The notes under the pieces were generated by a model. It saw nothing but the letters and a program-made list of their open reading frames with translations, did no database searches and was not told the origin of the DNA. 64,000 nucleotides of DNA from a virus: positions 108,838 through 172,837 of IMG/VR virus record IMGVR_UViG_3300042013_000045; one strand, written 5' to 3'. The stretch's first letter is position 1, and every line of letters begins with the position of its first letter. Both the position numbers and the translations under genes were made by a program. Positions 5,999 to 33,907 of the stretch are shown one piece after another.

Positions 5999-7930
5999 TT
6001 AAGAAGCTGACACAGTACCAGTGACGACTTGGGTTTTCAGAGGGACTTCTGCGCCTGCCGGATCTTCAACCAGATCTTCTTCGTCAACCTTCACGTAACG
6101 ATCGACGATACGCGGGAACTTCGACACCTCAGGCTGCACAAGGTAGCCGTGCAAGGAGATGGCGTAGATCGCGAACTCACGACCCATCAGCACCGCATGT
6201 TCACGGGTGTACTTGACGCGCAGTTCGATGGTAGCCAACTGACCGTTACGCTGGGCGTGTGGGTCGAATGCACCGATCGGGAAGCCCACTGCTTGCTGAC
6301 CATCGCAACGCGGGATCGCCGTAGCAGCCGAGTAGTCTTCCAGTGCACGACGGTGATCGTACAGCTCGTTGAGCAGGCAGCTGGCGAACAGCGTAGGACG
6401 TGGCGCGCCCGGAGCTACCAGATCATCCAACAGGAAGATGACCGATGGCGACGAGTTCGACTTGTCCAGACCGATGGTTTCAGGCGTGGTTACCGCCGGA
6501 ATGTTGATGACCAGGTCGTTACCCTGACGCTCGGTTTTGTCGGTCACCATCGTGGTCACAGAGAACACGGACTCGTACGAGAACATGATGTGCGGGCACG
6601 GGCTCTCGATGGTGTCCCAAGTAAAGATCTTCTTCGCTTCCGGGTTAGCCATGCTGTTCCAGAACGCTGGACGCATCCGGGTGTTGACCGGGATGATCAG
6701 CGCCATGCTTTCGACATGTGGCATGACTTCGTTGAAGAAGTAACCGACGTCAGTGGTACCCGGTACGCGCAGTGGGCCGTTCGGGGTATCTTTGCCGTCT
6801 ACCTTGGCCTTGACTTTCGCGAAGTCAGCAAAGGAAGCCTGAGTGGTCGCGTCAGCCGGTTTAACGACTTCGGTGTACTTGGACTTCGACTCCCATACAA
6901 CCGGCAAAGCCGCTTCAGGGGTTTCCACTTGTTCCAGAGACGCCATGTAGCCGTTCTCTTCGAGGAACATGAGGGTGCCACCGATCTGCTTGGTCGAAGC
7001 AGGGGCCGAGGTGCGGCGATGCTTCAGACCGCTGGACTGAGTCTTCCAGAAGCCTTGTACCGCTTCGACGTTGGTCTTCGAATTGCCAGCCTTCTCCAGC
7101 TCGACTACCTTGGCGATGGTTTTACCCAGCAGGCTGTTCTTCAAAGTCAGCAGGTTCTGATCCGCCAGCGCGTAACGCCACACCATGTTGACAATCGCGG
7201 TTTCACGAGCGTACGGGTTGCCCAGTACTTCGTAAGACGGCGAAGCCTTCAGGGTTGCGATGGTAGCCAGGAAACCTTTGGTCAGGTGCAGGTTTTCTTC
7301 AGACGACGCTACGTGTTTCAGGACGCCCGATTGGAACCACTGCTCCATGATCGCTACAGCCGCAAACGGGGTGTTAACCGCGAAACGGATCAGGGCTTCG
7401 ACCTGAGCGTGCAGCTTGCCCGGATCAGGCATGTTCAGCTTCTTCAGCGTCAGCGGGCTGTGAGGAGTCATCAACGACGACTCAACATAGAAGTGACGGA
7501 ACTCTTTGCCGCCGTTGTTGGTCTGCTCGGTGTAATGAGCGTACGACGAGTTCATGTTGAAGACCGAGCTCACACGCGCTTCTTCGACGAAGCGTTTCAT
7601 GTCAGCCACGACCTTCTTCATTACTGGGTCAGACACAACGTCCGGGTTCCAGTAAACAGAATGCGAACCCATGTTGTCCAAGAACACCACCGAACCCATG
7701 CGAGCAAAGAAGCGAGCGCAGTGAGAGCAGTTCAGTTGCTTGCGCAGCTGGACAGCGTACTCTTCACCCTGTACTTCCAGCGCGTGCGACGAGATCAGGA
7801 ACAGGAACTTGGCAGCCAGAGTCTTGCGAATCTGGGTATTGAAGAAGACACCGTGAGGCTTGGACAGCAGCTCGTTGGAGGCAGCCTGCAATTCGTCCAG
7901 AGTCTTGTGGTAGTCGTAAACGTATTCCAT
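5999..7930 (-). CDS. Conserved jumbo-phage hypothetical protein (CxxC)
   Basis: 643 aa, AAGGAG RBS, LNCSHCARFF motif. Confidence 0.85.
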   Translation of the reverse strand: MEYVYDYHKTLDELQAASNELLSKPHGVFFNTQIRKTLAAKFLFLISSHALEVQGEEYAVQLRKQLNCSHCARFFARMGSVVFLDNMGSHSVYWNPDVVSDPVMKKVVADMKRFVEEARVSSVFNMNSSYAHYTEQTNNGGKEFRHFYVESSLMTPHSPLTLKKLNMPDPGKLHAQVEALIRFAVNTPFAAVAIMEQWFQSGVLKHVASSEENLHLTKGFLATIATLKASPSYEVLGNPYARETAIVNMVWRYALADQNLLTLKNSLLGKTIAKVVELEKAGNSKTNVEAVQGFWKTQSSGLKHRRTSAPASTKQIGGTLMFLEENGYMASLEQVETPEAALPVVWESKSKYTEVVKPADATTQASFADFAKVKAKVDGKDTPNGPLRVPGTTDVGYFFNEVMPHVESMALIIPVNTRMRPAFWNSMANPEAKKIFTWDTIESPCPHIMFSYESVFSVTTMVTDKTERQGNDLVINIPAVTTPETIGLDKSNSSPSVIFLLDDLVAPGAPRPTLFASCLLNELYDHRRALEDYSAATAIPRCDGQQAVGFPIGAFDPHAQRNGQLATIELRVKYTREHAVLMGREFAIYAISLHGYLVQPEVSKFPRIVDRYVKVDEEDLVEDPAGAEVPLKTQVVTGTVSAS

Positions 7931-30569: not shown

Positions 30570-30964
30570 ACTGGTGACTCGGTCAACGGTTGGAATTCCG
30601 CCTCCTATGCAACTTAGACTTCAAGACCCGCCCACCATTGGATTCAGGTTACCGACAGCTACCAGTTCCACCTAGTTACCATGAGTACCCTACTTGAAGA
30701 ATGCAACTTCCCCTGTGTTAAGTCTGTTTTATTCCATGAGGAATGACCAGACGGTCACCATGGAGCGCCCAAGAGACTGGAGTTCGGGTTCTACCAGTAC
30801 GTCATGTCAGCCTAGTTCAAAGCCCTTGATCGGCTCTTCTGCTGCATGTGTCCTCGCTTGTATTCCTGATCAGAGGAGTACTCGCTCAGAATAGACTATA
30901 GGGCGACTTCGACTTAACTTCGTTGCTGCGACAAAGACGAGGAGCCTTGCGACTCCTTATCAGT
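30570..30964 (-). ncRNA. Unknown ~395-nt structured RNA
   Basis: No credible ORF; GGAGTC-GCAA-GGCTCC GNRA hairpin, long-range GTTAAGTC/GACTTAAC and CTTCAAG/CTTGAAG helices, TCCATG/CATGGA. Confidence 0.6.
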
Positions 30965-31317: not shown

Positions 31318-31620
31318 TGGTGCCCACTGCCGGGATTTACCCAGGACCAACATGCTCCGCTCCACTAGACCTGCACACAATGGCTGTCAAGGGTGGCGCT
31401 GTCGTTTTCAACGGACATGGAAAGCCGTCCAGCAATACGACCGGCATTAACCCTAAGGCATGGCACAGTCGTACTCCCGGACATTCGGGTGCTCGACCAC
31501 TACGCTCCAGTCATGTCGTCCCCGTCGGGGATCTGTCACGTCGTAGCAGCCGAACATTAAAAGGCTCTCTACCAGCCAAGCACCTTTACTTGCTACGAGA
31601 GCAAGGAGGGATACGAGCAC
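31318..31620 (-). ncRNA. Unknown ~300-nt structured RNA ending in ACCA
   Basis: Ends pair (GTGCTCGT/GTGGGCAC); 15-bp helix 31542-31556/31490-31504 with G-U pairs on minus strand; T-arm-like hairpin before ACCA. Confidence 0.65.
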
Positions 31621-31729
31621 TAGCAGAGTAGCAGTAGAAGAAATGTGCATCCGTCTTACTATCGGAAGCTCAGAGGTCTGTTTCCAGACACGAGAGCCCG
31701 CGCCAGCAGCTTTCACTGCCACTCCCCAC
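31621..31729 (-). ncRNA. Unknown ~110-nt structured RNA
   Basis: 11-bp closing helix GGAGTGGCAGT/ACTGCTACTCT; GTCTG-GAAA-CAGAC hairpin. Confidence 0.55.
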
Positions 31730-31731
31730 AA

Positions 31732-31920
31732 TTGAATGTATCCCCTAGGTCACGTTCTTTCTGAGGCAGAACTCGAATCTGCAATGAGTCACGCTCTGAT
31801 GCCCGAAGGCCGCACGCTCCTCTCACCAACGGACAGGCAGCCACAATGGACTAAGGTTTCCACTTTAAGAGGCTTCAACCAAGGGTATACCAGTTCCCCC
31901 ACTCGTAGGGACACATTCAA
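31732..31920 (-). ncRNA. tRNA-like RNA with extended terminal stem and branched anticodon-replacing domain
   Basis: 13-15-bp terminal stem; D-arm GGG-GAACTGGTATA-CCC; T-arm GCAGA-TTCGAGT-TCTGC; no CCA. Confidence 0.7.
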
Positions 31921-32132: not shown

Positions 32133-32244
32133 TGGTAGTGCCGCCTGGAGTCGAACCAGGGACTTCTTTCTGATGGTGAGCGGCTAGCTCCACTCGAGGT
32201 GGAGCCGCTCGGGGAAAGGTCTCTACCAACTGAGATACGGCACT
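32133..32244 (-). ncRNA. tRNA-like RNA with a 36-nt hairpin insertion in the anticodon loop
   Basis: Perfect acceptor AGTGCCG/CGGCACT-A-CCA, D-arm, T-arm, stem CTTTC/GAAAG enclosing 43 nt instead of 7. Confidence 0.85.
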
Positions 32245-32265: not shown

Positions 32266-32343
32266 TGGAAGGGGTGACTGGATTCGAACCAGTGATCGCG
32301 GGATCAAAACCCGCTGCCTTGGGCCGGACTAGGCGACACCCCA
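32266..32343 (-). tRNA. tRNA-Gln(TTG)
   Basis: GCGGG-TT TTG AT-CCCGC; TTCGAAT; CCA. Confidence 0.93.
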
Positions 32344-32351
32344 ATTAAAGC

Positions 32352-32500
32352 GTTAGAAGAAGCGGACGAGCGAGATTCAAACTCGCGGATGGATAACTAT
32401 AGCCCCATGGCAGGCAGCCTCCACTCTAGCTCATGTATCGATCGGCGCTACCCGATATATCAACGTTCAACCACTCCGTCACCGAACGCTTCTTCTGAAC
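32352..32500 (-). ncRNA. tRNA-like RNA with extended terminal stem and branched middle domain
   Basis: AGAAGAAGCG/CGCTTCTTCT stem; D-arm ACG-GAGTGGTTGAA-CGT; T-arm GCGAG-TTTGAAT-CTCGC; no CCA. Confidence 0.7.
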
Positions 32501-32501
32501 A

Positions 32502-32589
32502 AGGCCCCGAGGGATGGATTCGAACCATCGACCTGCACCTGGAGGAATTACCTCGCAGACATCGCTCTAACCAACTGAGCTACCCAGGG
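32502..32589 (-). ncRNA. tRNA-like RNA with elongated anticodon arm (no standard anticodon)
   Basis: TAGCTCAGTTGGTTAGAGC D-arm, GATGG-TTCGAAT-CCATC T-arm; 28-nt arm capped by GAGG-TAATT-CCTC; ends GCCT. Confidence 0.75.
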
Positions 32590-33106: not shown

Positions 33107-33781
33107 TCACTCGTGAGTGGTAGACAACTCACTAATGATGCACACCGAGCCGTCTTCATCAGAGGTTGAGTCTGTGTAGTCGACTTGGTTGTAGATGCCA
33201 CCATGGAACTGGAGGATCTGGTCTTTCCACGAACTGTCCAAACGAAGCGCAGGGCACGTAGACTTACGTCCTTGGCACAGCGCATTGACAGATACGGAAC
33301 CAGCCGCAGTTACATGAACACTGATCTTGAACGGAACACCCAAGGGTACGTTTTCCAGTATGGTACTGTTAACGATCGCAGGGTCAGCGAAACTGGCTCG
33401 GAAGCCAATGGTCAGCTTACCCTTGTTCCAGAACACTTTCAGCGGTGGTGTGTTAGCGTTTTTAACATGCACTTGAGCAACCACAACCTTGGAGGCTGAG
33501 TTGACCTTTACCAGTGTCATCTCTTGACGACTCCAGTGATGGAGAGCGCTAGACAATGGCCAGTACTCGACTTCCTTCCATTCTGTGCGAGTGCGATGAA
33601 CGCTCTTGCTCGATGCACCCTTAGTAGGAGCGGTGAATTGAACGGAACCGTCTTCAAGCTGAACAACGCAACTCGGGCAGTTAGCCAGTGCGTAGTCACC
33701 CATGACCTCCAATGCAACTGGATTGGTCAGCGAAACGGGAAGCGGAGTAGCTATTTTGTACTGCGAAATATCAACGAACAT
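33107..33781 (-). CDS. Polysaccharide lyase family 7 (alginate lyase)
   Basis: PL7 motifs RTEWKE, QVH, FHGGIYNQ; start reset to MFVDISQ because the longer ORF runs into tRNA-Asp. Confidence 0.85.
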   Translation of the reverse strand: MFVDISQYKIATPLPVSLTNPVALEVMGDYALANCPSCVVQLEDGSVQFTAPTKGASSKSVHRTRTEWKEVEYWPLSSALHHWSRQEMTLVKVNSASKVVVAQVHVKNANTPPLKVFWNKGKLTIGFRASFADPAIVNSTILENVPLGVPFKISVHVTAAGSVSVNALCQGRKSTCPALRLDSSWKDQILQFHGGIYNQVDYTDSTSDEDGSVCIISELSTTHE

Positions 33782-33830
33782 GTTCAGTCTCTCAGCGTGG
33801 GTGCATAAGATGACGAACAGTTCTAGAATG

Positions 33831-33907
33831 TGGCGCCTCGTACCGGACTCGAACCGGTGACCCCTAGCGTGACAGGCTAGTACTCTAACCAACTGAGCTA
33901 ACGAAGC
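33831..33907 (-). tRNA. tRNA-Asp(GTC)
   Basis: CTAGC-CT GTC AC-GCTAG; TTCGAGT; GCCA. Confidence 0.95.

Follow-up and report, generated by a model that had tools for sequence, protein, structure and literature searches.

A tRNA-shaped gene with a hairpin in its anticodon loop: a candidate non-decoding tRNA mimic in a jumbo phage RNA gene cluster

The RNA gene cluster of a Pseudomonas-type jumbo phage contains a 112-nt gene that has the shape of a tRNA and carries a hairpin in place of its anticodon loop. We read this element as a tRNA mimic that is not spliced, does not decode and has a rod-like arm, and we give this reading a probability of about one half. A mimic is most likely, rather than a working tRNA, because no excision leaves a normal anticodon loop. 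More generally, the element is, as far as sequence comparison can tell, most likely a functional RNA of tRNA descent, and most likely one of several tRNA mimics in the RNA gene cluster of this phage. We infer that it is expressed and that it is not spliced.

Structure and genomic setting of the gene

The window (the whole stretch analysed, 64,000 nt) is the 3′-terminal part of a linear viral contig of 172.8 kb that is ~65% complete. The virion proteins of this phage are closest to those of the Pseudomonas jumbo phage pPa_SNUABM_DT01 (~71% identity) and are more distantly related to those of Noxifer- and PA1C-like phages.

The element occupies positions 32133..32244 of the window on the minus strand, with the CCA encoded at 32133-32135 (Table 1). 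In a local search, the Rfam tRNA model RF00005 (gathering score 29) matches it with 45.7 bits (E = 3.6e-9), and the alignment skips 42 nt as a local insertion within the anticodon loop. The tRNA body described in the original prediction, with its stems, discriminator A and encoded CCA, is present: the cloverleaf has a 7-bp acceptor stem, a D arm with G18 G19, a variable loop of 5 nt and a T arm with a UUCRA loop. The D stem opens with U10-A25 in place of the usual G10-C25. ARAGORN found the element in intron mode and missed it in standard mode. Its labels, Ser(cga) for the element and Cys(gca) for the orthologue described below, were rejected, as the two calls are inconsistent and the variable loop of the element has 5 nt.

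The anticodon stem CUUUC/GAAAG encloses 43 nt, again as first described, in which a 33-nt hairpin is flanked by CCC and ACCAUCA. In RNAfold, this hairpin reaches -19.9 kcal/mol (z = -4.0), a value equalled by 0 of 200 shuffles. A feature absent from the original prediction is that the 7-bp stem at the base of this hairpin is followed directly by ACCA, which is the signature of a tRNA acceptor end and recurs in the orthologue. Genome-wide, a 7-bp stem followed by ACCA occurs 69 times on the plus strand alone, and shuffled sequences give 53-91 for both strands together, so that these counts carry no information on an excess.

The gene lies in a minus-strand cluster (~30.9-33.9 kb) with six ARAGORN/Rfam tRNA calls (Asp, Trp, Tyr, 'Arg', Gln and Asn), which are interspersed with a PL7 alginate lyase gene and small ORFs. 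The cluster holds five ordinary tRNAs, all of which have U33, plus other tRNA look-alikes beside the element. The position of the lyase beside tRNA clusters is kept in ~10 related phage contigs. The 61-aa ORF that starts just past the CCA is preceded by a good Shine-Dalgarno motif (AAGGAG) and has no family match; a counterpart was not found in related loci. No RNA-processing domain was detected by Pfam in the ORFs neighbouring the element, and a promoter and terminator scan of the cluster gave nothing above chance. The nearest GenBank relative, pPa_SNUABM_DT01, has no match anywhere to the part of the cluster from the element to the 'Arg-like' RNA, and no tRNA in the syntenic stretch that was scanned. 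Two long, ORF-poor and hairpin-rich stretches of the same cluster, at 31318-31920 (-) and 30570-30964 (-), contain no Rfam family at gathering score and may be unknown structured RNAs.

Table 1. Features of the element, its neighbours and comparators. Positions are those of the window unless a locus (L number) is named.
Feature	Position	Strand	Remarks
Acceptor stem, 5′ strand AGUGCCG	32238..32244	-	pairs with 32137-32143, 7/7 pairs
Discriminator A	32136	-	
D arm UCUC / AGUUGGUA / GAGA	32220..32235	-	RF00005 and sequence reading
Anticodon stem, 5′ strand CUUUC	32214..32218	-	pairs with GAAAG 32166-32170, 5/5 pairs
Internal loop, 5′ side, CCC	32211..32213	-	CC in orthologue
Insert hairpin	32178..32210	-	RNAfold
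Hairpin, 7-bp base	32204-32210 / 32178-32184	-	
Hairpin, 5-bp top	32199-32203 / 32189-32193	-	
Hairpin loop CUCGA, 5 nt	32194-32198	-	
Hairpin, 4-nt bulge GCUA on 3′ strand	32185-32188	-	
Internal loop, 3′ side, ACCAUCA	32171..32177	-	ACCA 32174-32177 abuts the 7-bp stem, then UCA
T arm CCUGG / UUCGACU / CCAGG	32144..32160	-	RF00005; 2 compensatory pairs vs orthologue
tRNA-Gln(UUG), canonical	32266..32343	-	21 nt upstream of the element
Small ORF, 61 aa	31929..32114	-	starts 18 nt past the CCA of the element
PL7 alginate lyase	33107-33892	-	Pfam Alginate_lyase2, E = 8e-41; between tRNA-Asp and tRNA-Trp
'Arg-like' sibling RNA	32503..32589; L002 5561-5635; L118 249-349 (-)	- (window copy)	ARAGORN label Arg(gcg)
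CCA-ended inserts, comparators	L115 11193-11346, 11814-11939; L116 22-130, 297-416; L117 several		

Divergence between two phages and a sibling family

Among 61 IMG/VR loci gathered by a search with the neighbouring lyase protein, the sole orthologue found is located at 6380-6482 of IMG/VR contig L002, a locus with 78% protein identity and a syntenic order of tRNAs. The orthologue has the same design, with an "anticodon loop" of 34 nt compared to 43 nt, which excludes a recent, unique insertion into an ordinary tRNA, the contrary case raised by the original prediction. Its hairpin is unlike that of the element in sequence and has the same fold at the same site: between CC and ACCAUUU, a 7-bp base is separated by a 1-nt bulge on the 3′ strand from 3 bp that are capped by UUCG. 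A scan of IMG/VR with an exon-plus-gap pattern returned no further orthologue. A D-arm pattern matched the L002 contig plus one chance match only in IMG/VR, gave 42 matches in metagenome contigs, all unrelated to the element, and had no match in 185,579 species genomes.

The statistics are thin, as only two orthologues exist, and they concern 21 cloverleaf pairs, 7 of which have changed on both sides (3 acceptor, 2 anticodon-stem and 2 T-stem pairs) and 0 of which are broken; all 14 stem substitutions are thus compensated. The D arms are identical but for one loop base. In the 7-bp base of the insert, 5 of 7 pairs have changed and are still paired, when the stems are paired position by position in an alignment chosen by hand. 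The exons, in contrast, are 75.6% identical between the two phages, compared to 87-97% for the syntenic tRNAs Asp, Trp, Tyr and Gln. The element is therefore not conserved like its co-resident tRNAs, and its exons stand near the level of the neighbouring protein-coding DNA (76-78%). Since the exons diverge while the stems stay paired, selection appears to act on the structure and not on the sequence, a pattern expected if the constraints from a synthetase and the ribosome are gone. On this comparison, the element evolves as a structural RNA rather than as a tRNA. ACCAU is identical in both copies, which is expected ~1 time in 4 at 76% identity, and its conservation by itself is not significant.

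These data also bear on two readings in which the element would have no RNA function. It could be a dying former intron-bearing tRNA whose loop has decayed and which is kept by chance or as a spacer; we regard this as quite improbable. Its loop is non-canonical in every reading, its sequence evolves fast, the junction carries an indel (CCC vs CC) and U10-A25 replaces the usual pair, all of which would suit decay. However, as every stem substitution is compensated, neutral decay at 24% divergence is very unlikely, and the hairpin has been maintained as well. That the hairpin is instead a DNA-level palindromic mobile element, or the scar of a nuclease target in a tRNA gene, is hardly credible. 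The insert is near-palindromic and contains CTCGAG, but the hairpin sequence is single-copy in the 172.8-kb contig and among 118 fetched loci, no nuclease gene was found beside the element, and the hairpin at the same site in the orthologue differs in sequence. A repeated palindromic element was rejected on the single copy.

A second family in the cluster, the 'Arg-like' RNA, occurs in three phages (Table 1). Its body retains all three arms (acceptor, D and T), among which 5 pairs are compensatory across the three phages; the T arm covaries, and pair 4 of the acceptor stem is a conserved mismatch. The anticodon arm measures 28 nt in the window (with a 5-nt loop), 15 nt in L002 and 41 nt in L118, and ends in loops of 3 to 6 nt, a 7-nt loop being present in 0 of 3 phages. 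ACCA is absent from this family. The element and its sibling are thus alike in a conserved, covarying body, a rod-like anticodon arm of variable length and the lack of a 7-nt decoding loop. From this pattern, rod-armed tRNA look-alikes would be a mature product type of this lineage, and, judged by these alignments and by the larger inserts of related phages described next, tRNA bodies whose anticodon arm has been rebuilt as a rod or a branched structure recur in it as a conserved product type.

Several further tRNA look-alikes were observed. In related phages, structured inserts of much larger size occupy this place in tRNA bodies. At L003 4689-4839, L009 2551-2728 and L005 4686-4860, a circularly permuted tRNA-like domain is nested in an outer anticodon loop. 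The inner domain comprises a T arm, a capped acceptor stem and a D arm and has no CCA end; RNAalifold predicts 41 pairs for the nested element, 6 with compensatory changes. The same loci contain a tRNA body with a 51-nt anticodon-loop insert (L003 5023-5148, L005 5451-5575 and L009 2912-3037), which consists of a T-arm-like hairpin and an 8-bp, UUCG-capped hairpin. The hairpin at L005 5451-5575 (7 bp, 1-nt bulge, 3 bp and UUCG) has the same build as the insert of the orthologue. Within the window, 32350-32500 (-) holds an element of ~150 nt, flanked by the 'Arg-like' RNA and tRNA-Gln, that is closed by a 10-bp terminal stem (AGAAGAAGCG / CGCUUCUUCU), includes a hairpin like a T arm (GCGAG UUUGAAU CUCGC) and has neither a CCA nor an Rfam match. 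In Vibrio phage Cody, a tRNA-Ile of 93 nt (L066 187-279) has two arms of the anticodon type. An unannotated tRNA look-alike of Salmonella phage pSal-SNUABM-04 (L067 ~198-272, record positions 6027-6101) has a 6-bp 'anticodon' stem and a 5-nt loop, CCGGC, and adjoins annotated tRNA-Ile and tRNA-Asn.

Excision of the insert and comparison with other tRNA inserts

All single excisions that leave 7 nt were listed for both orthologues, and no contiguous excision yields U33 together with a purine at position 37. In the element, they produce 8 loops, all with C33, in keeping with the original statement that the resulting loop lacks U33, and only two have a purine at 37. In the orthologue, every possible 7-nt loop has C33 and none has a purine at 37. 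Removal from the first base of the insert to the CCA leaves CCC+UCA (6 nt) in the element and CC+UUU (5 nt) in the orthologue. Since RNase P cuts one base upstream on tetraloop substrates (PMC11143913), a cut one base off register was considered and rejected: a shift upstream would shorten the residual loop of the element further and would not rescue it. One reading is common to both copies, CC-CAU-CA in the element and CC-CAU-UU in the orthologue, in which position 37 is a pyrimidine that differs between the two.

This reading would apply if the element held a true protein-spliced mini-intron, which is possible but doubtful. An endonuclease and a ligase, supplied by the host as RtcB or by the phage as an enzyme not recognised so far, would excise the insert between positions 33 and 34, removing 36 nt from the element and 27 nt from the orthologue, and the product would be a C33 tRNA(CAU) read as Met or, if lysidine-modified, Ile. 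The CC + CAU reading with a 7-nt loop is available in both orthologues, the intact body is under selection, and the 3′ half of the element is closest to phage tRNA-Ile/Met genes, with which it shares A1-U72 and A73; no other tRNA for Met or Ile is present in the window. By itself, C33 does not preclude decoding, because annotated tRNA-Ile(GAU) genes of phages carry it: those of Stenotrophomonas phage A1432 (L065 106-178) and Vibrio phage Cody (L066 106-181) have the loop CCGAUAA, with C33 instead of the near-universal U33. A paralogue-like tRNA at L002 6218-6295 has a perfect cloverleaf and an 8-nt anticodon loop, CCGCAUAC, in which CC, one extra base and CAU parallel the CC...CAU reading of the element. 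However, tRNAs whose anticodon ends in U carry A37, and position 37 is C in the element and U in the orthologue. The two copies disagree at positions 37-38, U33 is lacking, the exons evolve much faster than those of real tRNAs, and the cut sites would miss the ends of the acceptor-like helix.

Bulge-helix-bulge introns have two 3-nt bulges with a 4-bp helix between them and are cut by an EndA-type endonuclease. The element shares with archaeal and eukaryal tRNA introns a short, intron-like insert in the anticodon loop, but its bulges are of 3 nt (CCC) and 4 nt (GCUA or AGCU), 7-8 bp apart by fold, in a bacterial setting. A bulge-helix-bulge intron was rejected, as the original prediction had anticipated in seeing no clear one. 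A group I intron was rejected as well. The position in the anticodon loop is shared with the group I tRNA introns of bacteria and phages, but their catalytic core (P3-P9) usually takes >200 nt, and the insert, only 33-37 nt long, has no catalytic core and no Rfam intron match.

The enzymes were sought with profiles for T4 Rnl1, Rnl2-type RNA ligase, RtcB, LigT-type ligase and the archaeal splicing endonuclease EndA. PF09414, PF09511, PF01139 and PF13563 had no match in the ~65%-complete contig or in four relatives, which include one 100%-complete 254-kb genome with terminal repeats, and PF01974 (EndA) had none in the same 5 records; the RtcB or Rnl ligase and the endonuclease to which the original prediction had pointed were thus not found there. 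In this respect these records are unlike the comparator phages with canonical CCA-ended inserts discussed below, in which PF09414 (RNA_ligase) matches in 3 of 3 sizeable records, one above the curated cut-off; RtcB was not found in these three phages. Counting against the mimic reading are the completeness of the contig, only ~65%, and the chance that RtcB or another ligase of the host does the joining. Of the two possibilities offered originally, a mini-intron or a non-decoding, unspliced mimic, the evidence leans to the mimic, because there is no canonical loop, no ligase or endonuclease in the records searched, and a rod-armed sibling without a decoding loop; the mini-intron is less favoured.

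Inserts of a related shape are found in the tRNAs of other large phages. 'Enigmatic' introns were described in Lak megaphage tRNAs by Devoto et al. 2019 (PMC6784885) and noted again in one sentence of a 2026 jumbo-phage survey (PMC13037316); they are anticodon-loop inserts of phage tRNAs that may themselves look tRNA-like. These two papers are the only published mentions of CCA-ended inserts that we found. The element shares with the Lak-type cases an otherwise intact tRNA body whose anticodon loop carries an insert of a size well below that of a ribozyme, although it belongs to a Pseudomonas-type jumbo phage and the Lak inserts to gut megaphages. Scanned with a pattern, IMG/VR yielded unrelated phages that have CCA-ended inserts shaped like tRNA ends (Table 1). 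In four comparator tRNAs (two each in L115 and L116), removal from the first base to the CCA leaves perfect 7-nt loops, CUUC+UAA, CUUU+UAA, CUGU+UAA and CUUCC+AA, which correspond to Arg(UCU), Lys(UUU), Asn(GUU) and Gly(UCC). ARAGORN misnames some comparators Met(cat), because the CCA of the intron and the U of the exon read as CAU. Like the L115 and L116 inserts, that of the element opens with an acceptor-like stem of 7 bp and has NCCA at its end; unlike them, it leaves 6 nt on removal (5 nt in the orthologue) without U33, whereas theirs leave the canonical C-U-NNN-A-A. It is probable that the hairpin with its ACCA either derives from such CCA-ended inserts in the tRNAs of large phages or has converged on them.

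The acceptor-end shape raises the question of whether the insert itself is the product, a reading that we consider unlikely. Host RNase P would cut 5′ of G35 and the 3′ end would be trimmed to the internal ACCA, which would free a CCA-ended microhelix and leave a nicked tRNA body. The carrier tRNA would no longer decode, and one or both pieces would serve as decoys for bacterial immune enzymes whose targets are the tails or the anticodon arms of tRNAs. Hairpin substrates made of the acceptor and T stems are cleaved by E. coli RNase P, which reads their RCCA end (PMC11143913), and internal cutting of the element is plausible because its 7-bp stem with ACCA directly behind is of the kind that bacterial RNase P and enzymes recognising CCA prefer (PMC11143913). 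The immune nuclease Cas12a3 cuts the CCA tails of tRNAs and accepts acceptor-stem mimics (PMC12851939). In both orthologues, the 7-bp stem is extended by a second helix (12 and 10 bp in total) and followed by ACCA, and CCA-ended inserts are common in other large phages. Compared with the RNase P model hairpins, the insert has the same 7 + 5 bp helix then ACCA, a layout that the E. coli enzyme cuts at the helix base, but differs in its 4-nt bulge on the 3′ strand, 5-nt non-T loop and internal position (PMC11143913). The bulge lies where tRNA has none, and the top loop, of 5 nt or a tetraloop, is not a T loop, which would lower the efficiency of RNase P and shift its cut; together, these two features argue for poor cleavage of the insert. 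Moreover, the sibling rod-armed family is without ACCA, and the conservation of ACCA is not statistically compelling.

A tRNA-shaped RNA outside decoding

The species 1 and 2 RNAs of phage T4 are non-decoding stable RNAs of the phage tRNA cluster. Compared by description, the element is like them in lying among tRNAs and in being partly tRNA-like without a usable anticodon, and unlike them in its complete cloverleaf, its encoded CCA and the added hairpin shaped like an acceptor end.

As a non-decoding mimic, the element would keep the acceptor stem with its encoded CCA, the D arm, the T arm and the anticodon stem, while its anticodon loop would be replaced by a 3 x 7-nt internal loop (CCC / ACCAUCA) and a 12-bp bulged hairpin, forming a long rod-like arm. 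The outer ends would be matured in the manner of a tRNA, by RNase P at the 5′ end and by trimming to the CCA at the 3′ end, and the hairpin would be retained in the mature RNA. The element would thereby preserve what tRNA-handling proteins recognise, namely the acceptor end and the elbow, and replace what decoding and anticodon-directed nucleases need. Its tRNA-shaped body would then engage some tRNA-binding factor, and its most likely role would be that of a competitor or decoy that is neither cut nor used at the anticodon arm. Phages and bacteria are engaged in an arms race over tRNAs, and a decoy role fits what has been published on it (PMC10264068, PMC12445682, PMC12851939). A lesser possibility is that the element serves the processing and stability of the ORF that follows it.

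Small structured inserts are found in many tRNA genes of large phages, and the literature terms them only 'enigmatic'. The element separates two ideas, as its insert has the shape of an acceptor end, yet the surrounding gene probably cannot become a decoding tRNA. Body and hairpin appear both to be kept by selection, in a lineage whose searched records contain no recognisable RNA-repair enzymes, and their retention in a probably non-decoding RNA points to a function of a tRNA-shaped RNA outside translation. The likeliest setting is the contest of phages with bacterial defences that target tRNAs (PMC10264068, PMC12851939, PMC12445682). If the insert should prove to be the product after all, the 'intron' would be the payload and the tRNA a mere carrier, which would also explain the CCA-ended inserts of many large phages. 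As a compact object of 112 nt, the element is suited to questions of RNase P processing, splicing and decoy function.
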